Notes: generated by a model from the letters alone, not told the origin. Shown: positions 4,191 through 59,365, counted from the first letter of the stretch. The stretch is DNA of 64,000 nucleotides from Ignavibacteriales bacterium (GCA_016194505.1 JACQBK010000016.1:5654-69653); one strand, 5' to 3'. A program made the numbers and translations.

Positions 4191-5584
4191 AAACCCTTCT
4201 TGCAACATTAGCGATCTCATTGTTGCTTACAATGCCGGAATCCGATAAATCGCGCGATATTGAAAAAAGGATTCAAACACAGCCATCACAACGAATTGAA
4301 ATTAACGGCTTTAATGGGTCCGACATAACATTCAAATCATGGGATAAAAATGAAGTGTATCTCAAACTTAACGTCAGCATTTCTTCATCGGATGAAAGCT
4401 ATGAACGAGATTATATTGAATCGGTCAATGTTATAGACTCTCAGACGGCAAACGCGGTCATATTGACTTTTCGGGAACCAACAAAGGAATTTAACGGGAA
4501 GACGTTTTGGGGAACCGTAAAGTCTCTTTTTGTTTCCTACATTCGAAAAAAAATTTCCGGCGAGATTTATGTACCGCAGTCAAACCCGCTTTCGACGGAT
4601 ATGAAATATGGTTCTCTTTCGCTTGAAAATATGAGGGGGAGCGTCCGTTTGCTGGGGCGCAGCAATACCGTAACGCTAAAAAATTGCTCTACAATTGAGG
4701 AAGTCCAAAACGACTATGGCAAAACGACAATCGAGAATTCCGGCGGCAACCTCCAAATTGAAGGAAGAAGTGGCACGATTACTATAGATACATTCAACGG
4801 GCCCATCAGCGCGGATGCTGAATATTCGACTATTACCATAGGCAAGATTAAAGAGAAGCTTTCCATCAAGTCCCGGAGCGCAAAGTTGAAGCTTGAAGAT
4901 ATTCAGGGCGACTTATCTGTTAACTCCGACTACTCGAACATTACCATCAATAACGTCTCCGGCTTTGTCGATGTGGGGACAAAAAGCGGCACCGTCAAAG
5001 TAAAACAGGTCGAAGGAATCAATATCGACGCGGACTATACGAAGGTGGAGGTTATTTCTGTCAGTGGAAAATCAAAAAAGGAAATCATCATCAATGGACG
5101 TTCGGGGAGTCTTATCCTTGAAGACGCTGTCGGCGATCTGAAAATTGATAACCCGTATTCGAAAATGGATTTAAAGAAAATTCGCGGCAATGTTGAGCTT
5201 CGGACAACAAGCGCTACCGTGCGAGCAGAAGATATCATTGGAGATTGGACATCCTATACAGAATATGCAACGGTTACGCTCGATAATTTAACCGCGCAGA
5301 CAATTTCAATGACAAATAAAAGCAATCCGATCGAAGTTCAGCTTAAGAATGCCCCGAACAAAATCAGCATTAAAAACCAGTACGGCAGAGTTGATGTAGA
5401 AATGCCGCAGGGATTCAGCGGCGAAGTAAATCTTGAGTCAGAGTACGGAAAAATTGACACAAACTTGCCTATCAAATCAAAAAATCTCGGCAGCGGCGCT
5501 TATGGAATGGGAAAAATAGGCACTGGCAATGGCTCTATCAACATCGAAACTAAATCCGCAAACATTAAGTTGATTCAGCGATAA
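4187..5584 (+). CDS. DUF4097-like 'putative adhesin' beta-helical repeat protein, secreted
   Basis: ATGA overlap with the upstream gene. There is a signal peptide. Degenerate ~20-aa repeats (..SGTITIDTFNGPISADAEYSTITIG.., ..SGTVKVKQVEGINIDADYTKVEV.., ..YGRVDVEMPQGFSGEVNLESEYGKIDT..) are typical of the DUF4097/YvlB family that is co-operonic with sigma/anti-sigma pairs. Confidence 0.6.
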   Translation: MKTLLATLAISLLLTMPESDKSRDIEKRIQTQPSQRIEINGFNGSDITFKSWDKNEVYLKLNVSISSSDESYERDYIESVNVIDSQTANAVILTFREPTKEFNGKTFWGTVKSLFVSYIRKKISGEIYVPQSNPLSTDMKYGSLSLENMRGSVRLLGRSNTVTLKNCSTIEEVQNDYGKTTIENSGGNLQIEGRSGTITIDTFNGPISADAEYSTITIGKIKEKLSIKSRSAKLKLEDIQGDLSVNSDYSNITINNVSGFVDVGTKSGTVKVKQVEGINIDADYTKVEVISVSGKSKKEIIINGRSGSLILEDAVGDLKIDNPYSKMDLKKIRGNVELRTTSATVRAEDIIGDWTSYTEYATVTLDNLTAQTISMTNKSNPIEVQLKNAPNKISIKNQYGRVDVEMPQGFSGEVNLESEYGKIDTNLPIKSKNLGSGAYGMGKIGTGNGSINIETKSANIKLIQR

Positions 5585-5598
5585 CGTTGGACGATTGC

Positions 5599-5626
5599 AG
5601 AGCGTCCCGATACATCGGGACGCTCT
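5599..5626. terminator. Perfect 12-bp stem hairpin between convergent genes (bidirectional terminator candidate; no clear U-tract)
   Basis: agAGCGTCCCGATacatATCGGGACGCTct. It is nearly the same hairpin as at 2849-2874. Confidence 0.35.
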
Positions 5627-5634
5627 ACAACATT

Positions 5635-6105
5635 TTACGGGTAAAACCTCAACGCAATCCCTATTTCAAGACCCATTGCTACTGTGGGAGTCAATAGCAA
5701 CGATGGACCAAGCTCAAAAGCAATGTCAAAGGGAAATTCACGAGGAAGATAATCTACTCCGAACACTCCCCGAACGCCAAATGCAAACGAATTGCGTGCG
5801 AATGACCGCCCGGAAAGACCCGCATCGCCAATATATGCACCCGCTCCATAATAGAATGGGAGCTCGGCATTATGAAACGTATCATAATGACCCAAGTAAT
5901 CTACTCCAACCGTCAAACCTCCGCCGAACGAAGCGCCAATAGAACCCTGGTATGCAATGGTCGAGTTCTGCCAATACTTGATGGAAAATCCTGTCGGCGC
6001 ACCAAGGACCACTCCGACTCCCATCTTTTTTCTTGAATTGGCTCCATAACTCACCGAGGTTAATACCAAACCAAACAAGAAAGCAAACATCATTAGTTTC
6101 TTCAT
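5635..6105 (-). CDS. Small glycine-rich outer-membrane beta-barrel protein
   Basis: Signal peptide MKKLMMFAFLFGLVLTSVSYG, then Gly/Tyr/Phe-rich amphipathic strands. Confidence 0.5.
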   Translation of the reverse strand: MKKLMMFAFLFGLVLTSVSYGANSRKKMGVGVVLGAPTGFSIKYWQNSTIAYQGSIGASFGGGLTVGVDYLGHYDTFHNAELPFYYGAGAYIGDAGLSGRSFARNSFAFGVRGVFGVDYLPREFPFDIAFELGPSLLLTPTVAMGLEIGIALRFYP

Positions 6106-6250
6106 AAATCCTCCGGTTGAATTATAACTTGTTCCCAGAACTCTTTTCGTTTGCTGGAAGGGCTAAAGCCCTTCTCCGTTTTGGACGCTATTCTACCGTT
6201 AATTACTGTAAGGATTTTAACTCTCAAAAAACATTTAGAAAGAATCATCT

Positions 6251-9153
6251 TTAAAATGACTTGTAGAGATATTCCTTCAAAAACTTTCCCGTGTATGAGT
6301 TGGGAGATTGAGCTATGGTCTCCGGTGTTCCGGTGGCAACGATGCGACCTCCGGCGTCTCCCCCTTCGGGACCCAAGTCAATCACAAAATCGGCACATTT
6401 TACAACATCCATATTGTGCTCGATCACAACAAGTGAATGCCCTGCTTCTACAAGCGCATCGAAACATGTAAGCAGTTTTGCGATATCATCAAAATGCAAG
6501 CCGGTGGTAGGCTCATCGAAGATAAAGAGAATTTTCCCTTCTGTGTGCGATGCCGTAAGGTGGTGGGCAAGTTTTATCCGTTGCGCCTCTCCACCTGAAA
6601 GCGATGTCGCCGGTTGTCCCAGATGAAGGTATCCTAACCCGACATCATCCAATACCTGCAAGCGTTTTGCAACGCGTTTGCCATCGGCAAATTGGGAAAA
6701 GAACCCAATCGCTTCCATCACCGTCATTGCAAGAATCTCGTCAACATTTTTTCCATGATAACGGATTTCCAACACTTCCTGCTTAAAACGTTTTCCCTTG
6801 CATCCCTCGCAGATCAGATACAAATCGGCAAGGAACTGCATCTCGATTTTTTGGAACCCATCCCCCTCGCACACATCGCAACGACCTCCGGGAACGTTAA
6901 ACGAGAAATGCCCGGACTTAAACCCTCGAATCTTCGCCGCTTGCGTGTTTGCAAGCAAATCGCGAATGAGATCAAAGGCTTTAATATAGGTAATTGGATT
7001 CGACCTCGGCGTACGGCCAATCGGCGATTGGTCAACAAGCTCGACAAGATTAATGTGATGATCGCCTTTGATGGAAGAAAATTTCCCTACGCTCCCTTCA
7101 AACCCACCTTTGATTTTTTGGATGCCGGCATAGAGAATTTCATGTACCAGTGTGCTCTTGCCTGAGCCGCTTACCCCCGTAACGCATACAAACAAACCAA
7201 GCGGGATGCGGACGTCAATTTCTTTCAGGTTGTGTTCCGAAGCGCCCTTGACAAAAATAGATTGCTCGGAATCTTTCCGTCGTTTTTTCGGTACGGGAAT
7301 AGAGTTTTTGCCGTTAAGATACCGCGCCGTCAAAGATGTCGGATGCTTCAGCAATTCATCAATCGTTCCGTTGAAAACAACTTCGCCGCCGTGTTCCCCC
7401 GCCTTTGGTCCCATATCCACAACAACATCCGCAGAGCGCATCATTTCTTCATCGTGCTCAACGACCATGACCGTGTTGCCGACATCCCGAAGGGATTTTA
7501 AAATATTGATAAGCTTGTTGTTATCCCGCGGATGGAGACCGATGCTTGGTTCATCCAAAACGTATAACGAGCCGACAAGCGATGAGCCAAGCGACGTTGC
7601 AAGATTGATGCGCTGGGATTCTCCGCCCGAAAGCGTCATCGTCAGCCGGTCGAGCGTTATGTAGCCGATACCGACATCGTTCAGAAATTTTAGCCGCTTG
7701 CGGATTTCTTCCAAAATCCGTTTGGCAATGTCTATCTCGGCTTTCGTCAGCCTGATTTCTTGAAAGAACGCATGCGCTTCCTCAATCGTCATACGAACGA
7801 CATCATAAATTGTTTTCCCGCCGACACGAATGTTGCTTCGTTCCGCAATCGCGCCCCACCGCATTCATCGCACGTCGTATAACCCCGAAAGCGGCTTAAA
7901 AAAACGCGGTAGTGGATTTTGTAGGACTTGCGCTCAATGAATTTGAAGAACTTGTTAATGCCGTCAAATCCCTTGTAACCGTTCATGACTACATCGTGTT
8001 GTTGTTCGGTAAGGCGTTTGTAAGGAACATCCAACGGCACACCCGCTTCGCCCGCAATGCGTTGTAAGTCCAGAAGATTTTCTTTCCAGCGAGGAAATGT
8101 CCACGGGAACACCGCTCCCTCCCTGAGCGTTTTGGTGGGATCGGGTATGACTAAATCCATATCAATCCCCATCGAGCGGCCGAAGCCCTGGCATTTTGGG
8201 CACGCGCCGACTGGATTGTTGAATGAAAACATGCGCGGGTCGGGGTCCTCATAACGAATTCCATCATCAGGGCACTCATAATGCTGGGAGAAGCGGAGCA
8301 TTTTGGCGGAATCAAGCAACTGCACGAGAGCATAGCCTTCGCCTTCCACAAACGCCGCTTCGATGGAATCGGCTAAGCGCGTGTCGTTATCCTTATCATC
8401 CTTGCGGATAATCAAACGGTCAACGAGAACGAAAATTCCCTTTTTGCTTTTCGCTTTGTAATCGGTTTCGTTCAGGTCAATAAGTTCACCCGCCATCTTT
8501 TCGGCGGGTTCCGTAACGACAATCCTAAAGAATCCGCGTTGCTTGAGGACATCAAATTCTTCTTTGAGCGAGCGACCCGGATGGTCGTGCATAGGGAAAA
8601 GGATATAGAGCTTTGTCCCGTCCGATTCTTGTTTCAGACGATCAACAACATTCGAAACCGTATCGCGCTTAACGAGCTTGCCGCACACGCGGCAATACGT
8701 TTGCCCGATGCGCCCGAAGAGCAAGCGGAGATAATCGTACACTTCGGTCGTTGTTCCAACGGTCGAGCGGGGATTGCGGGTAGATGTTTTTTGCTCGATA
8801 GCAATGGAGGGGCTGATGCCCGAAATCAAATCTACATCGGGCTTATCCATTCGCTCGAGAAATTGGCGGGCGTATGAGGAGAGGCTTTCTACATACCGTC
8901 GTTGACCCTCGGCATAGATGGTGTCAAATGCGAGGCTCGATTTTCCTGAGCCGCTGACACCGGTAACAACGATAAGCTTGTTACGCGGAAGCTCCAGGCT
9001 GATGTTCTTGAGATTGTGAACCCTCGCCCCTTTGACAACGATTTTGGTAAGTTTTTTGCCTGCTCCCCCGTTTGTCGGGAACGGTGCGGTTACGGCAGGA
9101 TTCTCGCCTGCAAGAACTGCGGTTTTTTTCCTTTTTCTTTTTTCATTTTTCAT
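6251..9153 (-). CDS. uvrA: Excinuclease ABC subunit A (UvrA), reading frame broken by an apparent 1-nt frameshift near 7850-7865
   Basis: Two abutting ORFs (7789..9153 and 6251..7864) carry the UvrA N-half (..VTGVSGSGKSSLAFDTIYAEGQRRYVESLSSYARQFL.., zinc fingers) and C-half (second Walker A VTGVSGSGKSTL, two LSGGE signatures). The junction ..CDECGGARLRNEAT / NIRVGGKTIYDV.. is colinear with E. coli UvrA in a different frame. Confidence 0.85.
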
Positions 9154-9437
9154 TGAATAAGTAACTTACTTCATCAAAGCCGCAAAATCAAGAGGGATAT
9201 GGGATATGTCACGCGAAGCGGGATCTCCGCCGTAGGCGGATGCGCCTTCGGTGCAAGCCTCTGGCTGAGGATACGGGATGTGAGACGTGAGCTAAAGAAT
9301 GTGAGGCGGAAGACGGGAGATGAAACACACATCTCACATCTTGCTACCACTTTTTCCCCCGCCTCCCCTTGACTTTTAAGAGAGCCTTCCACAGATTAGT
9401 CGCAAATGAATCTCCAGTTGTCCGAGAGTTAAACTCT

Positions 9438-9464
9438 CGGACAGTCCCAAGGGGATTCCTTCGG
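9438..9464 (+). other. Second copy of the conserved GGACnGTCCC..GGGATTCCTT motif, flanked by perfect hairpins
   Basis: ccgagagtt-aaactctcgg hairpin, then the motif, then cttcgattccg-ttca-cggaatcgaag (11-bp perfect stem). Lies in the 366-nt divergent intergenic region upstream of uvrA. Confidence 0.35.
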
Positions 9465-9573
9465 AAGAATTTCTTCGATTCCGTTCACGGAATCGAAGAA
9501 CAATACAGATTAGTCTCAGATGAATCGTGTGAAATTGCCTTTCGATGGGCAGATAAAAAAGGAATCAAACTTC

Positions 9574-9978
9574 ATGGACAAAAAGAGAATTTCATCTATT
9601 ATAATATTCATCGGGGGTGCATTAATCTTTTTTATGGGGATTGCCCATGCATTGGGCATTTCCAGCATCAAGGAGTCATTGTCTCAACATTCTACGCTGA
9701 CTCAAAGCCGTCAGAACCAAATCTTGATTAATTGGGTTTTCTCCGGAGCGGCGATCAGCGCGTTGGGTCTCATTGCTTTCTTGCTTGCACCTCAAGTAAG
9801 AAGGGGAAAAAAGTTCGCACGAGACATTACCGCACTCATTGGAGTGTTCTTTCTTTTGATTTCTTTAATAGCGTACCTCATTGAGCCTGACCCAAGGCTT
9901 CTTCTCGTATTTACTTTTCCGGCGCTGTTGCTCCTGATGCCTATGATATTCTTCAGGAAAGAATTTACCTCGGACTAA
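9574..9978 (+). CDS. Hypothetical small integral membrane protein (4 TM)
   Basis: ORF 9520..9978. The start is uncertain; MDKKRISSIIIFIGGALIFF at 9574 was chosen. Four hydrophobic helices. Confidence 0.45.
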   Translation: MDKKRISSIIIFIGGALIFFMGIAHALGISSIKESLSQHSTLTQSRQNQILINWVFSGAAISALGLIAFLLAPQVRRGKKFARDITALIGVFFLLISLIAYLIEPDPRLLLVFTFPALLLLMPMIFFRKEFTSD

Positions 9979-10012
9979 CATCGTAGTCTGAGCCAATGAA
10001 ACCTCGACTCCC

Positions 10013-10387
10013 ATGCTCAAAACCGCCTCAAACCTTTATCTATTAAACGCCACCCTTCTTATCACGCACGAGATAGACTCCGCATACTGGAAGGAGTGGG
10101 AGCTGTTCGGGATCCCCGGCGGCATACAACTCTTTCTGATACTGAATTTTTTGCTCCTGCTCGCGTTTCTCTTCGGATACAAACAGTTGCTGCTGGGGAC
10201 AAAAAGTGGTTATATATTTTCTCTTGCATTGGCTTTTGGGGGTATCTTTGCCTTTGTTATTCACACGTATTTTATACTCGCGGGACATGCCGAGTTCACA
10301 CCGCCCATTTCGCTGGTGATCCTTATCGCTACGCTGATCGTATCGCTTGCGCAGGGATTGGTTGCGCTTAAATCGTTACGAACTTAA
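10013..10387 (+). CDS. Hypothetical small integral membrane protein
   Basis: 124 aa with 4 predicted TM helices. Confidence 0.45.
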   Translation: MLKTASNLYLLNATLLITHEIDSAYWKEWELFGIPGGIQLFLILNFLLLLAFLFGYKQLLLGTKSGYIFSLALAFGGIFAFVIHTYFILAGHAEFTPPISLVILIATLIVSLAQGLVALKSLRT

Positions 10388-10404
10388 AAAAAATAGAATG
10401 ATAT

Positions 10405-10608: not shown

Positions 10609-10700
10609 GCAAAAATTTTATTTTTCAGATGTCTCTACTTATTACGTTCTACAGTTAAATATGCGGCAAGTTTATGTATCAAGTAGTCCGAGGAGGATAA

Positions 10701-11156: not shown

Positions 11157-11209
11157 TCAATAACTTTAAAAGATTTTAGAATGACTTTTTTCTTTTATCG
11201 TTTTAGCTC

Positions 11210-12145: not shown

Positions 12146-12256
12146 AAAAATAGAACACGGGAGATCGGGAGTTTCTTTCAACCCCTTAGTGTCTTGACGG
12201 TTCACCATTTCTTTATTCTTGCATTTTATTGAACATTCTCTATCTTTCTTCACATT

Positions 12257-12727: not shown

Positions 12728-12744
12728 CGTTTTCCCAAAGAAGA

Positions 12745-19309: not shown

Positions 19310-20056
19310 TTAAAATTTAATGTCTATACGGGTTATATGGTTCTTCTCGATGTGCAGATAAATTGATCTGCTGTTGTTTTCCGCCAATGCAAACTGAAGA
19401 ACCACATAAGGAATGATGCGGTGATTACCATAGTACACTGAACTATCAGAATTGTATAACGGAACAGGGTAAAAATCTATCGGTAGATTATCGTCGGGAA
19501 TCAAAAATTTCCCGAGCGAATCCGTCCGTGCCGTCACATTGCCGCTTACCGTAACAGGATATGATTTCTTCGTTTGCTCATCAACTATATACCGGACAGT
19601 ATAGACGCCGCTTGGCGCAGGCACACCGTTGGATTCTTTTTGATCCCATACAATGACAAAGGGTCCCCTCTCAGCGCGACCATTAAACAAAATTCGCTTT
19701 AAATGTTCTTTACGGTCATAGACTCCAACGAGAATAATCTTAACAGGGTCGTTCACCTGGAACTCTTTGGAAGGAGGGTCGTTGCTATCAACAGACCCGT
19801 AATCATAAAAAAGCTGCACGGGAATATCACGATAGGGATTCCCTAACCGGTCCGTCAATGTCCCCTCGATGCGGTACCCTGAGATCTCCGGTTCACTCGA
19901 TAAGGCAAGCGGAATTTCTCTCTCACAGCCGGACACAACGACAATCATGAAAGCATAGAACACAAAAAAACCTCTAACACTGAGGTGATTCTTCCTTGCA
20001 CTATCTTGTCCTGCTAACGTTTTCATATCCTCGACAGCACCCGGCGATCCATTCAC
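19310..20056 (-). CDS. Hypothetical lipoprotein
   Basis: Lipobox ..MIVVVSGC. The GTG at 20056 overlaps the upstream stop as GTGA; the alternative ATG start (MKTLAGQ) is at 20026. Confidence 0.45.
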   Translation of the reverse strand: MNGSPGAVEDMKTLAGQDSARKNHLSVRGFFVFYAFMIVVVSGCEREIPLALSSEPEISGYRIEGTLTDRLGNPYRDIPVQLFYDYGSVDSNDPPSKEFQVNDPVKIILVGVYDRKEHLKRILFNGRAERGPFVIVWDQKESNGVPAPSGVYTVRYIVDEQTKKSYPVTVSGNVTARTDSLGKFLIPDDNLPIDFYPVPLYNSDSSVYYGNHRIIPYVVLQFALAENNSRSIYLHIEKNHITRIDIKF

Positions 20057-23000
20057 TTCACCACTGCAATTTTGATGATCGCCACTTCATTGCGACTGCC
20101 ATCCGTTGCTTCGATTCGAGCAAGATACACGCCGCTTTGAACGTTTGAAACATTCCAAGCGACTTCGCCGTCAATACCTGCAAGGGAGCGAGCTTTTAAC
20201 TCTGTTATTTTCGTGCCCGCCAGGTCAAAAATTTTGATTGAAATATCCGCATCTTCGGGCGTGTAGTACCGAATGTGCGTTGTCGAGCCATACACGGGGT
20301 TGGGCCAATTGTAGGTTCGAGCTTTCGGCAGAAATTCTGATGGAGTTGGATTGGTAATAGCTATCACGGACCCATCCCTGTTCTGATGCAGAGCATCGCC
20401 AAGATACTGCGACCACATCATCGTCTCTGCTTTGTATGACCGATTCAACTCAACTGCTTGGAGGGAGCCTGATGCCGTGACTCTGAGAGCTCCAATTTTC
20501 CCGTTGGAGGTTTGAAACAAACTTGGGAACGCTTCACCCGCACCGCTGAGTTGGATCGGAAAGCCAGAAATTATTTGACCATTCCTATCGCACGCCGTCA
20601 CCTCACCCGTTGATTGAAGCGCAATAATGTCGGGGAACGAATCTCCGTTCACATCTCCGATGAGAGGGAAACCGACAAACGAGCCATCGCCGGAGGCACG
20701 AAGAGGGAATCCTGCCAAGAAACTACCCGCTTGGTTCATCGCATAGAGATTTTTCCCAGCCAGTAAAACTATGTCCTTCTTGCCATCGCCATCTACATCG
20801 GCAACCGAGACCGAAGAAATGCTTCCATCCGCAATAGTGTTATCAAAAACCTTGTCGGTGAGGTTTCTATTATAAACAACAACCCTTCTCCCTCCGCGTT
20901 GAGCCGCTACTATAAAATTACCCAACGACGATGTACCCCCGGCAAGAATCCACGGAAACGACGAATCACCCAAGGATACGGAAGCCAGCTCACTGTAAAT
21001 TTTGCCACCGCACGCGAAGAAATACTCGTTAGGCTTGGAAAGCGCCACTGTAGGCAATTGTGCTATTGAAGAAACAGGGCTTGTGGAGACGCTTGTTTTT
21101 TTGCTTACGGCACCGTTAAGGTTCACTTGCCAAATCGTTCCGCTTTCTCCTCCAATAATAACAGAGCGGGCAATGGAAAGGTCAGCAAAAGCAGGCGGCG
21201 TCGTTACGCGTGCGCCAAGGGGAGTAATCACTGTTTGCAGGCTGTCATACACTCCATCGTTATTTCGGTCGTACGCCGTCCAGAAATATAACGAGCTATC
21301 TTGTGCCCCAGCTAACATGTGTCCGTTGTTGATCGTCTCAAATCCGGCTATTGGAAATTGTCCTCCTGCGGATGCAAACAACCCAGTCGGATCATTTGTT
21401 TTGCTCGTCCCCTTTTGTTGGAACGCATAAACTTTTCTTCCTGCGGGGACAATGGATGCAGTAGGAAAAATTGTCGGCGGCAGCGTCGAGTTGTTTACTG
21501 AAAGTGATCGGGAAAAATTATCCAGCCGTTGAAATTGGTCATCCCCGATTTGCACCGTTGCGGTCATGCGCGGCAACCGCTTGCTGAAATTTTTAATCGT
21601 TATTAAACTTTGCGCCCCGCTGTTACTCTTGCTATTGGGACTGGAATTTTTATCGAAGAGATTTTTATACACAATGGTCGTATTGCCGTCAAACCAGCAA
21701 TCGAGGGGCCAGCCAAACTCGGTGCCGGAGCCGGCTTCTTGGAAGGTGTACGTTCTTCCCACATCTTGAGAGCCGTCGGCTTCTTCGAGATCAACGCCGC
21801 GCAGATTCTGGTTTGCATTGACCGTGTTATCCTGCAACCCTCGTGCGATCACATCCTCATCAATATGCCAGATGAGAATTCCCCCGCCTTTGAATTCCTC
21901 CGATTCAGCCAACAAACCGGGAAGCGCCCAATCGAAATCTTCCACGTCAATAACTGATCCCGTAATTGCGCTGACATCTGCAAATGCGCTATGCAAAAAA
22001 CCCACTGTATCAACAGGAAAATATTTTGTGATAATGGAATTTCCCTGACGAATCGTCAATCGCTGGCCATTCTGTTGCGGGTCGCGGCTGCGATTTTCGA
22101 TAAGGAAATATTCCCGCTCGTTAATCGGGACCTTGTAAATCGTATCCTGCCCCACATTGGTGAGGCTCACTGCCGGAAGCGAAAGAGTCGTTGTGCCCGA
22201 TGAAACAGTAATCGGCGTAACCCATCCAAGATAGACCTTTTCCCACGCCGAAGGTTCAGGCGGAAACAATCCGTTAAATGCGCTGATGCCGCCTCTATCC
22301 ATCAATCCAAATCTGCCAATACCAGAGGCACCTGTTTTCGTATTGAAGAGATCCGGCAAACCGAGATAACTTCCAAATGAATTAGCAAGCAACCCATTGA
22401 AACTTAATCGTATTGTATCAAGTACCCCACCCACAACAAGAACGCGGGATTCGGTTTCGGGGAGCACCATTGTATTGGTGATACGAAATGCGCCTTTGCT
22501 CACAGGAATTCCCGCATACGATGGGTCTTTGAGATATTCTTGAAATGTCTTAAGGTTAAACGTGATGGATGGTATGTCATTCGGCGTTGGGTCGAAGCCT
22601 AATATCTCTACTAAATCAATATCTCTCCCAGCACCAGCGTGAAACAATATAAACGCATTATACTGAGAGAACTGAAGAGCAGGATAGAGAGAGTCTGCCG
22701 TATGCCAGCTCTCGACAACAAGATCGGCAAGGGGCTTATTGTTGCTCTTATCTTTGGGAGGCGAATACGCGGACATTTTTTTCGAAAGCGTAATCGTCTT
22801 GCCAAATACTTCCCCCTTAATATTTACTTTACCGTTCGATACTTTGCGGAAGTAATTGGAAAGAAACATCAGCTTATATGCGAAATAAGCGGAATCGTGC
22901 GGAGGCGGATCAATGAGCCGCGCTGCAGAGGCGGCATCCATTTGAAATCTGCCGTTACCAGTCGTGAGTGTATCCGTGTCTTGCGGAAAATTTACCATCA

Positions 23001-23163
23001 AAGCGAGAATACGGATTGTATCCGACGAGGAAGAAGACGGGGAAAGCGCACGCGCAACAGGCGCACCCATACCCTCTCGTTTCAACGACACGGCATGGCG
23101 GACTTGAGCCTGAAGGCTACAACCGAGAAGAAAAAAAAAGAAGAGAACGCGACCAGCTTTCAT
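20053..23163 (-). CDS. T9SS cargo protein: signal peptide, M6-peptidase-like N-domain apparently lacking HEXXH, FG-GAP/VCBS-type repeats, C-terminal Por-secretion sorting domain
   Basis: The C-terminus ..YNWPNPVYGSTTHIRYY...GVYLARIEA...IKIAVVK matches the T9SS type-A C-terminal domain pattern. VADVDGDGKKDIVLLAG is FG-GAP-like. SYLGLPDLFNT resembles the M6 GLPDEY region, but no HExxH was found. Confidence 0.6.
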   Translation of the reverse strand: MKAGRVLFFFFLLGCSLQAQVRHAVSLKREGMGAPVARALSPSSSSSDTIRILALMVNFPQDTDTLTTGNGRFQMDAASAARLIDPPPHDSAYFAYKLMFLSNYFRKVSNGKVNIKGEVFGKTITLSKKMSAYSPPKDKSNNKPLADLVVESWHTADSLYPALQFSQYNAFILFHAGAGRDIDLVEILGFDPTPNDIPSITFNLKTFQEYLKDPSYAGIPVSKGAFRITNTMVLPETESRVLVVGGVLDTIRLSFNGLLANSFGSYLGLPDLFNTKTGASGIGRFGLMDRGGISAFNGLFPPEPSAWEKVYLGWVTPITVSSGTTTLSLPAVSLTNVGQDTIYKVPINEREYFLIENRSRDPQQNGQRLTIRQGNSIITKYFPVDTVGFLHSAFADVSAITGSVIDVEDFDWALPGLLAESEEFKGGGILIWHIDEDVIARGLQDNTVNANQNLRGVDLEEADGSQDVGRTYTFQEAGSGTEFGWPLDCWFDGNTTIVYKNLFDKNSSPNSKSNSGAQSLITIKNFSKRLPRMTATVQIGDDQFQRLDNFSRSLSVNNSTLPPTIFPTASIVPAGRKVYAFQQKGTSKTNDPTGLFASAGGQFPIAGFETINNGHMLAGAQDSSLYFWTAYDRNNDGVYDSLQTVITPLGARVTTPPAFADLSIARSVIIGGESGTIWQVNLNGAVSKKTSVSTSPVSSIAQLPTVALSKPNEYFFACGGKIYSELASVSLGDSSFPWILAGGTSSLGNFIVAAQRGGRRVVVYNRNLTDKVFDNTIADGSISSVSVADVDGDGKKDIVLLAGKNLYAMNQAGSFLAGFPLRASGDGSFVGFPLIGDVNGDSFPDIIALQSTGEVTACDRNGQIISGFPIQLSGAGEAFPSLFQTSNGKIGALRVTASGSLQAVELNRSYKAETMMWSQYLGDALHQNRDGSVIAITNPTPSEFLPKARTYNWPNPVYGSTTHIRYYTPEDADISIKIFDLAGTKITELKARSLAGIDGEVAWNVSNVQSGVYLARIEATDGSRNEVAIIKIAVVK

Positions 23164-23235
23164 AAAGCTCCCGGGGTTGCTCACAAGAAATACCCTTCTG
23201 CATTTTCCCAACAAAGGTTCCTTCGGAACACCCTC

Positions 23236-24348
23236 TTATTCGGGTGCTCCTCCCCAAGAGATTAAAAGAGTAAAGCGTAATGTTTCTCCGAGTGGATGCT
23301 GTTCTTCAAATGCACTAATGTAACTAAAATCAAAACCGTAAATGTCATACCGAACGCCAGCGCCGAACGTCGCAAACTTACGATTACCCGCCTGAGGGTC
23401 TTCATAGAAGTACCCTACACGCAAGGCAACCCATTTTTTATACCAATATTCGAGACCGGCTCCGGTGACAAACTCACGCATAATTTGATTGAAAGACTTG
23501 CCCGTCCACGTGGTGAAGATCGCCTTATAGAAAGGATCGTATGTTGAACCATCACCAGTCTTCTTCACAAGCAATTTATTAACGTCGAGGATACCGGTAA
23601 GGTTATTAAAGTCGCTTTCGATAATTTTATATGCAATTCCTAAACGCAGATAGGTGGGGAGCGCATCGGCTTGAGCCTTATCAATGTACGTCAATGCGGG
23701 ACCTAAATTCGAAATGTTCATCCCGGCGCTGAAGCGATCTCCCAAATCAATTCCCGTAAAGGGTATTGATGACGAACGGGGCCTATACAACAATCCGACA
23801 TCGAAACTAAAACCGGAGGCAATACCTTTCCCTTTTTCCTCAGCCGTTCCAAACGGCGCAAGATAACTGTAGATGAAACGCGCGTTAATGCCCAGAGCAA
23901 AACTTTCGGAAATTTTCGTAGCGTATCCCGCGGTAACCGCAAACTCGTACGCCTTAAAAGTCTCAATGACAGTGGGGTCAATTTCAGTTCTGTTGAATGA
24001 GCCGAGATTCAGATAGGTAATACTCGCGGCAACGGTGCCGTCCAGCTCGGGTACTTCTCTTCTATACACCAAATAATCAATGAAGAGATCGTCCAAGCGA
24101 AATGCCGGCAGCCAATTTGCATGAGAGACGCTGATTTCCTGCCCGTGTTGATACGCGAGACCGGCGGGATTCCAAAACAACGCGGAAGCATCATCTGCCA
24201 GAGCAACGCCCGCTTCTCCCATACCGCTCGCCCTTGAGTTCGGGGAAATTAACAGAAATGGCACTGCCGATGTGGTAACTTGAGCATTCAGCATTTCACT
24301 GGACGCCACGATCATAACCATCAGCGCAAACCCAACAAGATTCTTCAT
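23236..24348 (-). CDS. porV: Type IX secretion system outer-membrane channel protein PorV (LptO) family
   Basis: Signal peptide, then the PorV/PorQ signature ..ASGMGEAGVALADDASALFWNPAGL... About 370 aa with a FadL-like barrel. Sits downstream of PorU in the same orientation. Confidence 0.7.
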   Translation of the reverse strand: MKNLVGFALMVMIVASSEMLNAQVTTSAVPFLLISPNSRASGMGEAGVALADDASALFWNPAGLAYQHGQEISVSHANWLPAFRLDDLFIDYLVYRREVPELDGTVAASITYLNLGSFNRTEIDPTVIETFKAYEFAVTAGYATKISESFALGINARFIYSYLAPFGTAEEKGKGIASGFSFDVGLLYRPRSSSIPFTGIDLGDRFSAGMNISNLGPALTYIDKAQADALPTYLRLGIAYKIIESDFNNLTGILDVNKLLVKKTGDGSTYDPFYKAIFTTWTGKSFNQIMREFVTGAGLEYWYKKWVALRVGYFYEDPQAGNRKFATFGAGVRYDIYGFDFSYISAFEEQHPLGETLRFTLLISWGGAPE

Positions 24349-24454
24349 AACGCACATCCTCCAAATAAGAAATAGTTTCCGGCATCATCCCCTGCCAGAG
24401 TGAGTAAAATAGTCGTTTTTATAGTGATATTCAACAGTCGCCATTGAAGATTTA

Positions 24455-25199: not shown

Positions 25200-28100
25200 T
25201 TACCTTAGCACCGTAAGTTTTCCCAACACTTCGCTCGTAGAGCTTCGGTCGAGCGACTTTGCTATCACCTTATAAAAATAAACGCCGTTAGCGATTTCAT
25301 TACCATCCCGGTCCCGACCATCCCACGGAACTTGCACAAACCGATCTATTATAGATGGCGTGCTCAACGACTGAATCAACCTTCCTGCGATAGTATATAC
25401 TTTTATCTCTACATCTATAGGGTCTATGGAGGTTCGCTGGAATGTGAAGGTCGTTGTCCGGTTAAACGGATTCGGAAAATTGAAAACATTATGAATCGAA
25501 AACACGGACGAATCCCGAACTTCAAAATACGTGTCAGCGAAAGCTGGATTATTATACGTATCCCATGCCTTGACGGAGAGCGTATGCCGCCCTTCCGGCA
25601 AACTCGTAAGCGGATAGCGAACCTGGCCGCTTTGATAGGTATCCAATTTGCCCCGGTAAAAATCCGTCAGATCAAATGAGCGGGAATTATCCATCAACGC
25701 CTCAAGCCGGTGCCCTATGCCGGCAGTGGAGGTATTTATCCCGCTGCTATCCGTCAAGTCAACTACGAGCATCGCATTCGGTTTAACGACATCCCCTGCC
25801 CGGAATGACGGGTCATCGAGATGGATTGAGATTTTTGGACCCACAGTATCCACGCCGGCGTTAGCATTTCCGAAGATGGTAATGCTTTCCGTGTACCCGC
25901 TCGCATCGGTAGAATCGCTATACGCATACACCGCAATGCGCGAACGGCTATCGCCATAGGAAACATCTTTGGGCACAGGGAACGTTGATTTGAACAAGCC
26001 GTTCTTTACGGAAACCTCACCGCGATAAATGAGACTGCCATCTACTTCGAAATAATAATCATTGCCCCACTCCGGCACGAACACTTTTCGTTTTGCATCG
26101 AACACTTCAAGCAACGCGCGACCGTTAAACGTATCCCAGATGGTTCCATTGTTTTTTTTGAGCGCACCGTTCGCTGCAACACGTCCCAATGATGGGACGG
26201 TAATCAGTCTTGCCGTGCTCTGCCCGTTGATGCTATCCACTGTTGCCGTTGCGCGCGGCATAGCAAGCCGCATCGTTGGATCGGCGAGGAGATGGTGTTT
26301 TTGGTCATTGAGACGATTATAAATTTGCTTCGTCGCCCACATCGCATCTCCAAGGCGCACTACTTGCCCTTGAGTATTCTTCGGGAAAAAATAGCTATAC
26401 AAAGCGGCGTTCAATTGAAAATTGTCGTATGAATACACAACCCGAGCCGCCGTTACAACGCCAATGGCTCCGGTTTGCGGCATTGCCAACAACACCTCGC
26501 CGGCGCTTACTTCAAATGGATAATCATAGCGCGCGTAGTCGCACGTAGCGGCAACGACGAGGAATGGCTTACCTGTGTTTCTGATCTGGGAAAAACTCTC
26601 ATCCTTTGAAAATATTTTCTCGTGCGCCCACTGGTCGGGATTACCGTGTCCTGTATAATTGAGAATCAACGTTCCGCGATTGATTGCATCAATGATTGCT
26701 TGATTTGCAGTCGGCTTCCGGCGACCGGTTGATGTAATAACAGTGGGATATTCGACGATATAAATCTTATCTCTTTCAAAGCTTGCCGGCGTATAATCTC
26801 GTGCTATTTGCTCAGCCTGATCGGTATGGATAATCCCATCATCCCCACTGTTGGTTAACCCATCATCGGCAACAAAAGTGATTCTGTTGCGCCAAGGATC
26901 GAACGGCATGGCAGTCTCGTACGCGATAATCTTATCAACAACATCCTTTGCTTCTTTAGTCGAATGAACGGGCAATCGCCCGATAGGCAGAGAAATACGA
27001 TCCACATTAGGTGTCAGGAACACAAAAAAATCGTCGCTTGCAAGCGTAAGAATTTGATGGATAGAATTGAGCGATTCATACGGGAGGACCCAGTTCTTCA
27101 TCGAGCTTTTAATATTTTTATAGTCAAAATTGCCGGCGCCAAACAACAAAACATATTTTGGTCTGATTGTCCAGTTCGTCTGGGCATATTTTAGAAAATC
27201 CCTTATCGCCATCGGATCAATCATGCCGCAGGAAAATTCGTTGAAGATTTGCTCGGTATTAACGACAACAGTTTTTAACTGATCGTTTTTCTCGCGATGT
27301 GCTTTAAGCCGCTCGGCTTCGGAAAGAAAATCCGATGGGGCAATAATAATAAAATCCGCACCATCGGCAATGCCATGCAAATTTGAATTTGTAAGGCGTT
27401 TGGCATTTGTCGGCGTTTTATAGCCATTGGGCCCTACCACTGCAAACTCACGCACAGAACCAGCTACCTGCGGAACTTGAAATTTGACTATGGAAGTGTT
27501 CGCAGGATCAAAAACCAAATTCGTTATTTGCTTGACATTATTGTGCTGTGCAACATCGAAAGCATACACATCCGTACGCGACGAAAGATTTTTCAAATTG
27601 TATTCGATGGTTGCCGTCGTATCGGGCGAGGAGAATAATAAAAAATCGTTTACAGCTTCAAATCGCTGGCGATAGAGTATTTCAAACCAATCTACCCATC
27701 CTTTTGCGGACGAGCTACCTCTCCCAAACAGCACGCGCAATATACTCCTGTCGTTTGGGATTGCACCAAAACGATCATACGTCATAACACCGGTTTGATA
27801 TGCTTTCTCATTTTCGATGGAGTTTACATCAATGGGATATGTGAGAGCCAGAAATCCAAACGGTTGGTTGTTTTCCTGAACACGAAACGTATCAATTGAT
27901 GTTGACTGGCTTAAAAAAGTAAAACGATACGTCATTGTTTTCGTCGCATCCACACCCGGAAGAAGCGTCGTATACACAGCTGAGGTTGTCACGTCGTCAA
28001 ATTTTCTACCAATCCACTGGCGACCGGAGTTCACGAGATTTTCCGCCTCTTCTTCCACAAATACTTTGCCCTGAAAATCCGTTGGATTATAGACACCCGG

Positions 28101-29180
28101 AAGATTCGTCGAGGAGATTGTAGCCATATTTTTCCCGCGCCCTGCTCCACCGTAAGTCAGGAAATAATAATTCGTCTCCGTGTAGTGGTTAATATAGTGG
28201 AAATACGTTTTTGCGCTTGGATCGTATTTCCACCCGCGGGTTGATTTGCCGTAAAAAAGAACAAAGTCGTCTGAATCGAACACGCCATTGCCATTCCTAT
28301 CTACAACGAGGCGCGGAATTTCGTCAATCCCATCAGGTCTTGCCGCGGTAAGGTCTTCCGGAAGCTCCTCTCCCCCGTTACCAAATATTCTTATAGAATT
28401 AATATTCCCGATAGCGCTCAAAGGAATATTTGCCGCCGCAAAAAACGCTTGGTCAATCTTATAGATGCCGTTCTCCTTGACTTCCATTCTGTACCACTCC
28501 CCCTGCGCAAGCGGTGAATCTGAAACTACTTTGCTCGACTTCGCCAAACTTCGCTCCGAAGAGAACGACGGTAACTGATTCTTCAAAAACATGGAAGCCG
28601 AAAAATCTGGGCTTGCCGCTCCCAAAAATTCTATCCTCACGACGATACGAGTATACACGCGCACAGCGTTGCGCCCAAGAGCAACCTGGACGGGATAAAA
28701 CTTCAACGTGCCAAGAGTAAACCCTCGCGATTCCCCCACATCAGAAAGCTCGACAACATCTTTTGGCAAGAAATCCATAGTCTTGAATTTTTCGTCCGGA
28801 GCCGTATAACGAGGCACCACTCCAAACTCTTTGTCTTTTATGAACTGAGGGCGGGTTGCCGGTCGGACTCCAGTAACATCATGGTAATCCACTGCAAGAA
28901 CTTGGATTATATATTTATCGGAAGGGAGATTGACCAAGCCGGCGCGGAACGGCAACATGGGCGACCCTTGTTCACCATAAACAGTCACTGCTCCTTGGAA
29001 ATTAAAGCGCGTGTATTCTACTCCATCGTTGCCGGAAACAGCTGCATTGGTGAACACAGGCACGAATTCCACCACCAACGAGCGGGAGTCTTCGCTGAGG
29101 ACGCGCATGTCCGTACCCGACTGACCATACGAAGTCGCGCAGAAACCTATAAGAAGCACTAAAAAATTAATTTTCCTCAT
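25200..29180 (-). CDS. porU: Type IX secretion system C-terminal signal peptidase/sortase PorU (peptidase C25, gingipain-like) with its own T9SS C-terminal domain
   Basis: About 1330 aa. The signal peptide starts MRKINFLVLLIGFCATSYGQ (M35 of the ORF). Contains a C25-like caspase-fold region. The C-terminal ..FNFPNPFNRTTTFTF...KVYTIAGRL..GKLTVLR matches the T9SS C-terminal domain. porV is adjacent. Confidence 0.7.
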   Translation of the reverse strand: MRKINFLVLLIGFCATSYGQSGTDMRVLSEDSRSLVVEFVPVFTNAAVSGNDGVEYTRFNFQGAVTVYGEQGSPMLPFRAGLVNLPSDKYIIQVLAVDYHDVTGVRPATRPQFIKDKEFGVVPRYTAPDEKFKTMDFLPKDVVELSDVGESRGFTLGTLKFYPVQVALGRNAVRVYTRIVVRIEFLGAASPDFSASMFLKNQLPSFSSERSLAKSSKVVSDSPLAQGEWYRMEVKENGIYKIDQAFFAAANIPLSAIGNINSIRIFGNGGEELPEDLTAARPDGIDEIPRLVVDRNGNGVFDSDDFVLFYGKSTRGWKYDPSAKTYFHYINHYTETNYYFLTYGGAGRGKNMATISSTNLPGVYNPTDFQGKVFVEEEAENLVNSGRQWIGRKFDDVTTSAVYTTLLPGVDATKTMTYRFTFLSQSTSIDTFRVQENNQPFGFLALTYPIDVNSIENEKAYQTGVMTYDRFGAIPNDRSILRVLFGRGSSSAKGWVDWFEILYRQRFEAVNDFLLFSSPDTTATIEYNLKNLSSRTDVYAFDVAQHNNVKQITNLVFDPANTSIVKFQVPQVAGSVREFAVVGPNGYKTPTNAKRLTNSNLHGIADGADFIIIAPSDFLSEAERLKAHREKNDQLKTVVVNTEQIFNEFSCGMIDPMAIRDFLKYAQTNWTIRPKYVLLFGAGNFDYKNIKSSMKNWVLPYESLNSIHQILTLASDDFFVFLTPNVDRISLPIGRLPVHSTKEAKDVVDKIIAYETAMPFDPWRNRITFVADDGLTNSGDDGIIHTDQAEQIARDYTPASFERDKIYIVEYPTVITSTGRRKPTANQAIIDAINRGTLILNYTGHGNPDQWAHEKIFSKDESFSQIRNTGKPFLVVAATCDYARYDYPFEVSAGEVLLAMPQTGAIGVVTAARVVYSYDNFQLNAALYSYFFPKNTQGQVVRLGDAMWATKQIYNRLNDQKHHLLADPTMRLAMPRATATVDSINGQSTARLITVPSLGRVAANGALKKNNGTIWDTFNGRALLEVFDAKRKVFVPEWGNDYYFEVDGSLIYRGEVSVKNGLFKSTFPVPKDVSYGDSRSRIAVYAYSDSTDASGYTESITIFGNANAGVDTVGPKISIHLDDPSFRAGDVVKPNAMLVVDLTDSSGINTSTAGIGHRLEALMDNSRSFDLTDFYRGKLDTYQSGQVRYPLTSLPEGRHTLSVKAWDTYNNPAFADTYFEVRDSSVFSIHNVFNFPNPFNRTTTFTFQRTSIDPIDVEIKVYTIAGRLIQSLSTPSIIDRFVQVPWDGRDRDGNEIANGVYFYKVIAKSLDRSSTSEVLGKLTVLR

Positions 29181-29796
29181 AAAAAATAAAAAAGCCGAAC
29201 GAGGTGAAACAAACGCCCTCATTCGGCTAAACTTTTTATACCGGAGCAAAACCGAATTTGTAAAAGGCGTGTGTTGTAACATCTACTAATCCTGAACGAA
29301 ACTCCTTACACATTAGTTCAGGTACTAACCTTTAACAAATACGTTATTCTTTTACTCCGTTTGGTAATAAATGTTGGGATAAAGATACGCATTCGCTCTA
29401 AAATTGTCAAGGGAATTTTTCTTTTGTAGAACTCCAACGCAACCCCAGAAGCCGCCATCGGAAAAAACCAAATTCTGCCCTCTCCTGTCGAACGACTGTT
29501 TGATGAAGAGCACACAGTATCCGCGTAGTGTCCTCCGCGCTCCTTCGTTATTCATCATGTGTGTCGGAGAATCAATAATCATCGTGGATTTTCTGGGGCG
29601 CTTTTGAGGAGCGGGCAGACTTCAAATTCATCGCGGCAAAATAAACTCCAGAAATACTGCCATATCATATTTTGGAATACAAACCCTGTAAGCTTTGTAT
29701 AATAGCACATAAGGCGGCTTATGCGATTTCAATTGCTTATGAGCTAAAAAAATGGTATATTTCTTCGATTTTTTATGAATTTTACGTTTGGAGCCT

Positions 29797-56358: not shown

Positions 56359-56901
56359 TCACAGCGGTTTAAAGCGTTCAAATGATTGACTGCACTGTTC
56401 ACAATAAAAAATTTGCCTGCAGAGCGTCGGTCCGAAAAAACTTTCAAGTCGCGTTCGTTCAGAGTGACAAAAAGGACACTGGACCGGCTGCCGGAGGCTT
56501 TCTGAAAGTCGGTCTTGATACGCCTGGCGTTTTTCCAAGGATTGCAACCGTGCAGGCGGGGCAATACCGAATACCGTAAGTTTCTCCCGCACCGTATCAT
56601 CAAGCAATTCGGTTGACCAAGCTTCGGAAAATGAAATTTCCACATTCACTTGCTTAAATCCCAAACCCAAAAGACGTTCTCTTACTTCTTCTTTCATCAA
56701 CTGTAATGCGGGGCAACCGGCAAACGTCGGGGTCATGAGCACAGTCACGGTTGTATCATTCACTTCAACCCGCCGGATGATTTTCATCTCAACAAGAGAA
56801 AGTACCGGAATTTCCGGGTCTTTCACTTTCGATAGTTCTTCCCACACATGTTGAGAAAGAGTATCTTTCTCTATCACCGAGAAGGTTGGATTTTGCTCCA
56901 T
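56359..56901 (-). CDS. paaD: Phenylacetate-CoA oxygenase subunit PaaD-like (MIP18/DUF59 plus zinc ribbon)
   Basis: DUF59-like N-terminus ..VKDPEIPVLSLVEMKIIRRVEV.. and C-terminal CPFCHS...CEQC. Confidence 0.7.
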   Translation of the reverse strand: MEQNPTFSVIEKDTLSQHVWEELSKVKDPEIPVLSLVEMKIIRRVEVNDTTVTVLMTPTFAGCPALQLMKEEVRERLLGLGFKQVNVEISFSEAWSTELLDDTVREKLTVFGIAPPARLQSLEKRQAYQDRLSESLRQPVQCPFCHSERTRLESFFGPTLCRQIFYCEQCSQSFERFKPL

Positions 56902-56904
56902 GCT

Positions 56905-57291
56905 TTATCTTTTCGTGATGACCATAATAATGCCCGCGACATGCCCCGTCCCATATGCCAATGTGGCATCCTTCGGGTCTATGTAACGAATCTCTTTTAT
57001 GTCTATCACAGAAATATTGTTCAACGTCTCCAACTCGCCATAGAATATATCATTCACATAGACAAGGGGGTTGATGGTCGAGCGGGTGCCCCTGACAATC
57101 GATTTAGGTCCTCTTGAAGTAAGAAACGCGGGCCTGCGTAAGCGCACTGCGTCAAAGGCGGTAATAGCGCTTGTCGTTGCGATTTCCTCCGCTGTCAACA
57201 CGTCCTTTGAAAGAGTGGCTTTGGAACCTTCATGGGAAGATCCGCAAGCAATAAATATTGCCGCCAACGCCAACACTATAACAATGTTCCT
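56905..57291 (-). CDS. Hypothetical lipoprotein inserted between paaC and paaD
   Basis: MRNIVIVLALAAIFIACGSS lipobox. No domain recognised. Confidence 0.4.
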   Translation of the reverse strand, partial: RNIVIVLALAAIFIACGSSHEGSKATLSKDVLTAEEIATTSAITAFDAVRLRRPAFLTSRGPKSIVRGTRSTINPLVYVNDIFYGELETLNNISVIDIKEIRYIDPKDATLAYGTGHVAGIIMVITKR

Positions 57292-57337
57292 CATACCGCA
57301 CCCTCCTTTTGAGTGAGTGATACCAACTCTCCTCCTT

Positions 57338-58138
57338 CTACCACTTTGACTGCGGAGCAAGGTCATATACTTGTCGTAGATCGCTGACCAATTGTTGAAG
57401 ATGCTCCGTTTGCGCTCCGCGACGTCCGCCGTCGTCGCTTGAACAAAGAATTCTATATATATCGTGTTCGCTTTTCACTGGTAGGGTAAGTGTTGCAGCT
57501 TTTAACATAGGAACAATACTGTGTAACCATTGATTCCGGAGAACATCATTTCCCGGAAATACGCCCGCTTGAATCAGTCCTTCTTCATCTTGCAAGGTTT
57601 CAAACATGCCAAGCGATTGAGAAAAAGCTTCATCCAATGCGGCTTGCATCCGGCGGTGGCTTTCTTCCGTTGCATCGCCCAATCGTTCCACTAAACTTTG
57701 ACTGTGAAGGAGATGGTAGGATTCTTCGCGTATTAATTTTTCGGCAATTTCTTTCAAAGGCTTGAAGGAACTTTGCGCTAACGATTGAAGGCGCACTTGT
57801 TCCGCCGCATCAAATAAATACTGCCGAACGACCGTATAAGCAAAATCTCCCTTGGGATACGAAACAAATCGGCAGCAGGTAAATTCTTTCCAAGAACGCT
57901 CGAACGCCATCGCATCGGGACTGCGACCGCCCAGTTGTTCACACAATGTCAACCAAACTAATGAGTGGCCAATTTCATCCTGAGCGATGTTGGAAAAAGC
58001 AATATCCTCTTCAAGGATGGGTCCGTAGCCCGTCCACTCAGAGTCGCGATGTCCCAAGATGAACTCATCATCTGCAAGCGAGAGAACAAACCGGCTGAGC
58101 GCCTTAGAAGAAATATTTGAGGGGACTTCAATGCTCAT
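57338..58138 (-). CDS. paaC: Phenylacetate-CoA oxygenase subunit PaaC (PaaI)
   Basis: Ferritin-like helical protein ..LADDEFILGHRDSEWTGYGPILEEDIAFSNIAQDEIGH.. in the paaA-B-C order. Confidence 0.7.
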   Translation of the reverse strand: MSIEVPSNISSKALSRFVLSLADDEFILGHRDSEWTGYGPILEEDIAFSNIAQDEIGHSLVWLTLCEQLGGRSPDAMAFERSWKEFTCCRFVSYPKGDFAYTVVRQYLFDAAEQVRLQSLAQSSFKPLKEIAEKLIREESYHLLHSQSLVERLGDATEESHRRMQAALDEAFSQSLGMFETLQDEEGLIQAGVFPGNDVLRNQWLHSIVPMLKAATLTLPVKSEHDIYRILCSSDDGGRRGAQTEHLQQLVSDLRQVYDLAPQSKW

Positions 58139-58415
58139 CGTCTACCGCTTTTTCAGGTGATTCAAAGGCTTTCGGATCGCGATAACTTTTATCGGTACTC
58201 TGTGCGAAGAAACCATCATCTTGATAATCTGTCGCTGTAACATCTTTTGTTCGAACAACCCACAAGCTTACGCACTTCAGGCGGCGAGCGAATTGATCCT
58301 TCGCAAGCTGTAACGCCATCTGAGGGTCAGGGGCATGAACCGAGCCAACGTGAACGTGTGCATCGCCCCGTTTCGTTTGATGAAACACTTCGTATGTTTC
58401 CCACTGGGTATCCAC
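58128..58415 (-). CDS. paaB: Phenylacetate-CoA oxygenase subunit PaaB
   Basis: 95 aa, MDTQWETYEVFHQTKRGDAHVHVGSVHAPD.. typical of PaaB. Confidence 0.8.
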   Translation of the reverse strand: MDTQWETYEVFHQTKRGDAHVHVGSVHAPDPQMALQLAKDQFARRLKCVSLWVVRTKDVTATDYQDDGFFAQSTDKSYRDPKAFESPEKAVDDEH

Positions 58416-58423
58416 TTACGCTT

Positions 58424-59365
58424 TTACGCCGCTTTAGGAGTTTTCGATTGTTTTGCTGCCAATGCTTCGCGCACCCATGTGCCTTCCTCGTGTACTTTTC
58501 GTCGAACAGCTAAACGTTCGGCGTTACAGGGACCGTCGCCGTTCACTACGCGCCTTAATTCCTCCCAGTCCGGTTGGGTATAATGATAATGCCCTGTTGC
58601 TTCATCGAGATAACAATTCGTGTCGGGGACATCAAACCCCAGCGCACGAATTTGCGGAACAATAAGATCAACGAACTCCTGCCGCACTTGCTCATTCGTT
58701 TTCGTTTTAATCTTCCATCGCATCGCCTGGTCTGTATGCACGGAAATTTTATCCGGCGGGCCCGACATCATCAGCGTCGGATACCACCACCGATTGATGG
58801 CATCTTGAGCCATAGCGCGCTGTGCGGGTATTCCTCTTGCAAGGGTGGCAACAGCATCGTACCCTTGCTTAATGTGAAACGATTCCTCGTAGCAGATGCG
58901 CTTCATCGCCCGTGCGTAAGGACCGTAAGAAGTTTGCGCCAACATAGTTTGGTTAATGACAGCAGAAGTGTCCACAAGCCAACCGATGACACCCACATCC
59001 GCCCATGTTGGGGTCGGGTAATTGAAGACGTTGGCATATTTCGCTTTTCCGGTCAGCAGCTCTTCCATCATTTCTTCGCGGGATTTGCCCAGCGTTTCCG
59101 CCGCACGATAGAGAAGCTGGCCATGGCCTGCTTCATCCTGCACTTTCGCGATGAGAGTCAATTTGCGCCGAAAGCCCGGTGCATAGGGAATCCATTTCCC
59201 CTCAGGCAATTGCCCCACGATTTCGCTGTGAGCATGCTGGCTTATTATGCGAATCAAATTTTTCTTGTACTCATCGGGCATCCAATCGCCCGGCTCAATT
59301 TTTTCGCCGCGCGCGATGCGAGCTTCAAATTCGGCTAATTTTTGCTCGTGGGTCTTTTCTTGCAT
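58424..59365 (-). CDS. paaA: 1,2-phenylacetyl-CoA epoxidase catalytic subunit PaaA
   Basis: Di-iron ligand regions ..[12 protein letters not shown].. and ..[12 protein letters not shown]... Confidence 0.8.

Follow-up and report, generated by a model that had tools for sequence, protein, structure and literature searches.

In a 64,000-nucleotide stretch of DNA from an uncultured Ignavibacteriales bacterium (hereafter “the window”), uvrA occupies two overlapping open reading frames (ORFs) instead of one. The question raised by this locus is whether the gene was broken by a mutation in the organism, is split or recoded and still functional, or is intact in the cell and interrupted only in the assembled sequence.

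An interrupted class-I uvrA and its surroundings

The two ORFs lie on the minus strand exactly where the initial annotation had placed them, with a 76-nt overlap (Table 1), and both are UvrA, as it had proposed. The N-half ORF matches NF001503 (NCBIfam) over profile positions 4-429 of 943 (E=1.6e-126, 423.6 bits), and the C-half ORF matches positions 422-941 (E=1.1e-237, 791.5 bits). Each half as sequenced scores below the NF001503 cut-off of 1147 bits. In the N-half ORF, Pfam detects the UvrB-interaction domain (PF17760, residues 165-279, E=6e-16) and the UvrA DNA-binding/insertion domain (PF17755, residues 331-396, E=8.9e-14). Given these profile positions and domains, we conclude that the two ORFs are colinear parts of one class-I uvrA. 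The span of 2903 nt has a remainder of 2 on division by three, and the frame shifts by -1 from the upstream to the downstream part, in agreement with the different frames described initially.

In its native frame, the 5′ part of the gene carries the Walker A motif of the first nucleotide-binding domain (NBD-I), the UvrB-binding and insertion/DNA-binding domains and the zinc-module cysteines of the CDEC pair (residue 428). The 3′ part carries the NBD-I signature motif, the NBD-I Walker B motif and the entire NBD-II. The break is located just past the CDEC pair and separates the Walker A motif of NBD-I from its signature and Walker B motifs. Each ORF also includes a short out-of-frame segment beyond the break. 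The start of the C-half ORF at 7864 is a mechanical ORF start, and initiation there is putative.

When the missing Leu is re-inserted, the gene encodes one continuous UvrA, as had been predicted, although its length is 968 aa and not the approximately 967 aa given initially. The repaired protein scores 1232 bits on NF001503, an NCBIfam equivalog model, which is above the cut-off, and 1179.5 bits on TIGR00630 (cut-off 729.8). Residues 32-964 align with the UvrA of Geobacillus stearothermophilus (2r6f), and the alignments with 3pih, 9gxk and 3zqj are comparable. The Walker A, signature, Walker B and H-loop motifs are intact in both NBD-I (residues 65, 509, 531 and 565) and NBD-II (residues 661, 853, 877 and 911), and the CxxC pairs are intact as well. 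The protein resembles canonical class-I UvrA (NF001503/TIGR00630; 2r6f, 3pih, 3uwx) in having two ABC nucleotide-binding domains, UvrB-binding and insertion domains and CxxC zinc modules, whereas the window gene is interrupted after codon 440. It also differs in an N-terminal extension of ~35 residues, which is common to the close Ignavibacteriales homologs (96-100% query coverage). The class-II UvrA2 of Deinococcus radiodurans (2vf7) has the ABC-ABC architecture in common but matches residues 421-962 only. We rejected identity as a UvrA2 paralog, given the presence of the PF17760 UvrB-binding domain and a score above the class-I equivalog cut-off.

A search with the joined protein returned homologs from metagenome genomes of Ignavibacteriales, Ignavibacteriota and Bacteroidota. 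The best 120 homologs listed are all single ORFs of ~950 aa; among the matches listed, the best (P0001) is 94% identical to the joined protein and the next ones ~80%. The uvrA of the window is not a single ORF of about 940-970 codons, the form typical of class I. Judged from its sequence, the gene is a class-I UvrA in every feature but ORF continuity. Neither uvrB nor uvrC is encoded in the 64-kb window.

Several other features of the window were recorded (Table 1). An intact gene for a Fpg/MutM-type DNA glycosylase is located 2 kb from uvrA, and its product has a C-terminal extension of ~44 residues past the 276-position profile. One 181-aa ORF matches only positions 69-134 of the 146 in the REP-associated tyrosine transposase (RAYT) profile, in its C-terminal part, and is possibly a divergent RAYT or a degraded one. 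A type IX secretion neighbourhood fits the Bacteroidota/Ignavibacteriota placement, and a phenylacetate-CoA oxygenase-like cluster includes a small unrelated ORF between the paa genes. In the gene for an SDR/NAD-dependent epimerase, the interval from the upstream stop to the GxxGxxG motif lacks any ATG, GTG or TTG, and the first residues (Met) of its homologs align to an in-frame ATC codon; either translation starts at this rare ATC or an ATG start has been lost. The corresponding ORF, at 45492, looks N-terminally truncated. A frameshift was considered for it and rejected, as the peculiarity concerns the start codon and involves no indel.

Table 1. Location of uvrA features, matching contigs and other genes, in window coordinates
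Feature	Position	Strand	Details
N-half ORF	7789..9153	-	454 aa
C-half ORF	6251..7864	-	537 aa
uvrA 5′ part, native frame	7835..9153	-	codons 1-440; NF001503 profile 4-429, Pfam
uvrA 3′ part, native frame	6251..7834	-	527 codons + stop; NF001503 profile 422-941
Deletion point	7834..7835	-	GAAGC (7839..7835), then AACATT (7834..); nucleotide and codon alignments
Out-of-frame tail of N-half, TFVSAGKQFMMSFV	7789..7833	-	followed by TGA stop, 7791..7789
Out-of-frame leader of C-half, MRWGAIAERS	7835..7864	-	from the first ATG past a TGA stop
Slippery-type heptamer G_GGA_AAA	7813..7819	-	N-half phase; 15 nt downstream of the deletion point
ATGA	7789..7792	-	N-half TGA overlaps a conserved Met codon (in VVRMTI) read in the downstream native frame
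In-frame 21-nt insertion relative to L001	8495-8515	-	7 aa; UvrB-binding domain region
Logan contigs L002, L003	3654-6413
Logan contig L004	9415-10515		diverges from the window after 10496 (last ~20 nt)
Logan contigs L085, L086	10596-13344		both end at 13344
Fpg/MutM-type DNA glycosylase	11210-12145	+	311 aa
ORF, possible RAYT	14343-14888	-	181 aa
Type IX secretion neighbourhood	20053-29282	-
Por_Secre_tail/FG-GAP protein	20053..23214	-
PorV	23236..24357	-
C25-peptidase protein, PorU-like	25200..29282	-	1360 aa
SDR/NAD-dependent epimerase, 5′ region	45387-45500	+	upstream stop at 45387; ATC at 45435
Phenylacetate-CoA oxygenase-like cluster	56359-59365	-
PaaD	56359..56901	-
Small unrelated ORF	56905..57366	-	weak Plug-domain match
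PaaA/PaaC-type ORFs	58424..59365, 57338..58138	-
PaaB	58128..58415	-

Size, position and age of the break

The initial annotation had attributed the break to a single-base indel at 7850-7860. Alignments with relatives show instead that 4 nt are missing between 7835 and 7834, corresponding to one conserved Leu codon plus one base, with a net change of -1 in frame. In detail, the DNA encoding P0001 (L001) shares 90% of nucleotides with the window uvrA and reads GAT GCG CTG AAC at the junction, where the window has GAA GC----AAC. The alignment contains three gaps. Those of 21 nt and 12 nt are in-frame, and the 4-nt gap at the junction is the sole one out of frame. The 21-nt gap is an insertion in the window gene, and the 12-nt gap reflects a longer 3′ end of the window uvrA; both look like ordinary natural length variation.

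The missing codon is well conserved. When 20 relatives are compared codon by codon, the closer ones all read GAx GCx CTx AAy (E/D-A-L-N), and in the protein alignment all of the 40 top homologs have a residue between the A and the N, which is Leu in 38. Their consensus is RLRx(D/E)A-x-N/H/A-I-R/K-V, and the window sequence jumps from RLRNEA to NIRVGGK in the other frame, which confirms the amino-acid junction described initially. It had also been correctly noted that the site is not a homopolymer; the 4-nt gap lies in non-repetitive sequence. With the four bases restored, the junction is GAAGCNNNNAACATT and the ORF is continuous over 968 codons, where the window reads GAAGC followed directly by AACATT. 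Insertion of 1 nt anywhere in 7792..7864 also reopens the ORF, without recreating the ancestral protein.

We compared the gene with L001 by the Nei-Gojobori method. The dN/dS values of the N-half and C-half are 0.057 and 0.054 (0.056 overall), at a dS of about 0.46, and the 2.9-kb uvrA contains no second stop or frameshift besides the 4-nt deletion. This substitution pattern indicates that strong purifying selection acted for essentially all of the divergence from the nearest known relative. With dN/dS low in both halves and only one lesion in the gene, either the break arose very recently or the organism's DNA does not contain it. The interruption of the gene would also fit an old pseudogene decaying in a lineage that had abandoned nucleotide excision repair, but we find this barely credible. 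Such a gene should have multiple lesions and relaxed selection, and both are absent here; moreover, the Walker, signature, H-loop and CxxC motifs have all survived and the repaired protein remains above the equivalog cut-off. We therefore rejected a long-decayed pseudogene.

Translational rescue and split-gene readings

A broken uvrA could still provide some UvrA activity, via -1 slippage at the G_GGA_AAA heptamer or via reinitiation at the ATGA, the latter giving two polypeptides that would have to reassemble. From the sequence features of the overlap, we consider such leaky rescue very improbable. The heptamer is of the X_XXY_YYZ type and is inside the 76-nt overlap in phase, and a simulated -1 slip yields a full-length protein of 967 aa in which TFVSA replaces LNIRVG; the peptide diagnostic of this event would span NEATFVSAGKTIYDVVR. 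However, the heptamer is simply the native-frame GGC GGG AAA codons (G-G-K) read out of frame, and the same codons are found in the intact relative L019. We estimate that roughly 0.1 in-phase heptamers of any kind would be expected by chance in 25 codons. We detected no downstream stimulatory structure in the 83 nt from the heptamer, which have a minimum free energy of -15 kcal/mol versus a shuffle mean of -17.0 kcal/mol (z=+0.74); of 200 shuffled sequences, 153 gave a fold at least as stable. There is also no frameshift in any of the 40 aligned homologs or in the DNA of 20 relatives, so the heptamer is not a conserved recoding site.

Programmed -1 frameshifting, as in dnaX and the IS3-family transposases, likewise involves a -1 downstream frame and an in-phase X_XXY_YYZ heptamer in the overlap. 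In contrast, the uvrA site has neither conservation nor a hairpin or pseudoknot, and, judged by homology, its frame changes 15 nt upstream of the heptamer. Given that two of the three defining features (structure and conservation) are absent and the heptamer alone is present, we rejected a programmed -1 frameshift gene.

Reinitiation is conceivable in that the N-half stop overlaps, as ATGA, a conserved Met codon that is in frame with the downstream half. An ATGA overlap is the classic arrangement for stop-start coupling; that in uvrA is almost certainly fortuitous. Two polypeptides made in this way would lack 15 native residues (LNIRVGGKTIYDVVR) and divide NBD-I between chains, and a scan of the region found promoter-like and terminator-like sites around uvrA at chance frequency, which likewise speaks against rescue.

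Truncated UvrA products encoded on long contigs occur in many other metagenome assemblies (including P0252, P0274 and P0306), some of which are visibly noisy. Three of them end in the same RLRxEA...GGK stretch, and the breakpoints are otherwise scattered over residues 355-671. We rejected a recurrent natural split site, given this scatter and the fact that the shared stretch probably reflects ascertainment by the N-half query. A naturally split gene was rejected as well: no relative is split here by design, the truncations are scattered, the ATGA is the only coupling signal and fortuitous, and promoters are at chance level.

A deletion in the cell or an error in the assembly

The initial annotation was right in its core reading of one uvrA split by a frameshift, with a genuine inactivating mutation and an assembly error as the two possible causes. 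The reading that we prefer, with a probability of about one half, is that a genuine deletion, very recent in evolutionary terms, has removed 4 bp of uvrA between window positions 7835 and 7834. The competing explanation is that uvrA is intact and that four bases dropped out in assembly, in polishing or when contigs were merged, to which we assign somewhat less than even odds.

To evaluate the quality of the assembly, we scanned ~50 other ORFs of the window with Pfam and NCBIfam. Their family matches are essentially full-length over the profile, and no second split gene was found among them. Same-strand overlapping ORF pairs that appeared suspicious are distinct genes (a sigma factor and its neighbour, a Usp and a cNMP-binding regulator, and paaA-D). 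Of the 160 homopolymer runs of at least 6 bases in the window, 43 of which have at least 7, none was found to break a gene. Via exact neighbour-gene products, we identified contigs of the same strain in the Logan assemblies of runs SRR12113409 and SRR12113410; no papers on these runs were found by accession. The contigs are 99.5-100% identical to the window and, apart from the diverging end of L004, have no indels over ~6.6 kb of matching sequence (3654-6413, 9415-10496 and 10596-13344), within which identity is 99.9-100%. Five substitutions were detected in total, three of which are clustered in an intergenic spacer (5593, 5596 and 5598). Given that ~6.6 kb of flanking sequence matches independent short-read contigs without indels and that ~50 genes are intact, the assembly is not generally indel-noisy.

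The flanking Logan contigs are 1-2.7 kb in length, and none extends to the junction. The uvrA body (6413-9415) was not found in the same-strain Logan assemblies as protein fragments of at least 190 aa. No exact product of the N-half, of the C-half from the ATG at 7864 or of the C-half from the ATG at 7792 is on record. Searches for the junction DNA with a gap of 0-4 nt gave 0 matches in GTDB representative genomes and JGI metagenome contigs, and a codon-degenerate junction pattern gave 0 matches in JGI metagenome contigs. No near-identical protein fragments were found with either the N-half or a 220-aa segment around the junction as query, the best being 77% identical.

Long conserved genes are frequent victims of assembly error, and a plausible route to one here would be co-occurring relatives that share k-mers in the highly conserved uvrA. 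One lone lesion, with strong purifying selection over the rest of the gene (dN/dS ~0.055), is equally expected of an intact gene with one consensus error. The fully intact catalytic motifs and the single ORFs of the best homologs listed are also consistent with an artefact, as are the truncated UvrA calls at scattered positions in many other MAG assemblies. Recovery of the flanks without the uvrA body from the Logan data is compatible with a tangled assembly graph, and the fact that no independent contig spanning the junction was found counts against a real deletion. To our knowledge, uvrA is almost universally retained, which further argues against a real loss. Even a tick endosymbiont that has lost mutSL still keeps uvrABCD (PMC8709577), and we counted this toward an artefact. 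A literature search on uvrA pseudogenes yielded mostly papers on endosymbiont genomes.

On the other hand, consensus errors typically affect homopolymers or a single nucleotide, and losing 4 nt from non-repetitive sequence is unusual for short-read or high-accuracy long-read consensus; this favours a real deletion. An error-prone consensus is also difficult to reconcile with the lack of any other frameshift in ~50 genes and of indels relative to the independent contigs. The gene has diverged from L001 to a similar degree on either side of the junction (dS of 0.52 and 0.42), so there is no sign of a chimeric join. One broken gene per ~55 is within the normal content of real pseudogenes, which we counted for a real deletion. 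Ordinary frameshift pseudogenes, and “frameshifted” coding sequences in draft genomes and MAGs, likewise show a small indel that generates two overlapping ORFs. They usually involve a change of one base in a homopolymer, whereas the indel in the window is of 4 nt in non-repetitive sequence, and nothing else of substance distinguishes them. Housekeeping genes interrupted by a frameshift are an ordinary and already well-known kind of observation in draft genomes. Overall, we lean slightly toward the genuine deletion over the artefact, and we infer that the deletion is present in the real DNA rather than in the consensus only.

If the deletion is genuine, loss of the Leu codon and one base would place everything downstream in the -1 frame, and translation from the native start would end after 440 native and 14 junk residues. 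The truncated product would keep the NBD-I Walker A motif, the UvrB-binding domain and the insertion domain. Without the NBD-I signature motif, the NBD-I Walker B motif and all of NBD-II, it could not be an active UvrA ATPase. By analogy with the architecture of ABC ATPases, neither product is expected to be an active UvrA alone. For the 527 native codons downstream, no promoter or initiation signal of their own was identified and, as the N-terminal product is probably inactive, the allele would be a uvrA null, possibly representing only one variant in the sampled population.

The mutator phenotype that the initial annotation derived from the break is overstated. Cells that lose UvrA mainly become sensitive and hypermutable to UV and bulky adducts, and do not turn into strong spontaneous mutators as after the loss of mutS or mutL. 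If the break is an artefact, only the annotation needs correction, with the two ORFs merged or flagged as one frameshifted uvrA; real or artefact, neither outcome bears on an open question. Leaky rescue, if true, would show in nature how translational leakiness can buffer a core repair gene that is broken. If the deletion is real, the genome represents a strain or subpopulation without UvrA-dependent nucleotide excision repair, which should be sensitive and hypermutable to UV and bulky-adduct damage. It would then provide a small data point, and no more, on the dispensability of nucleotide excision repair in dark habitats.
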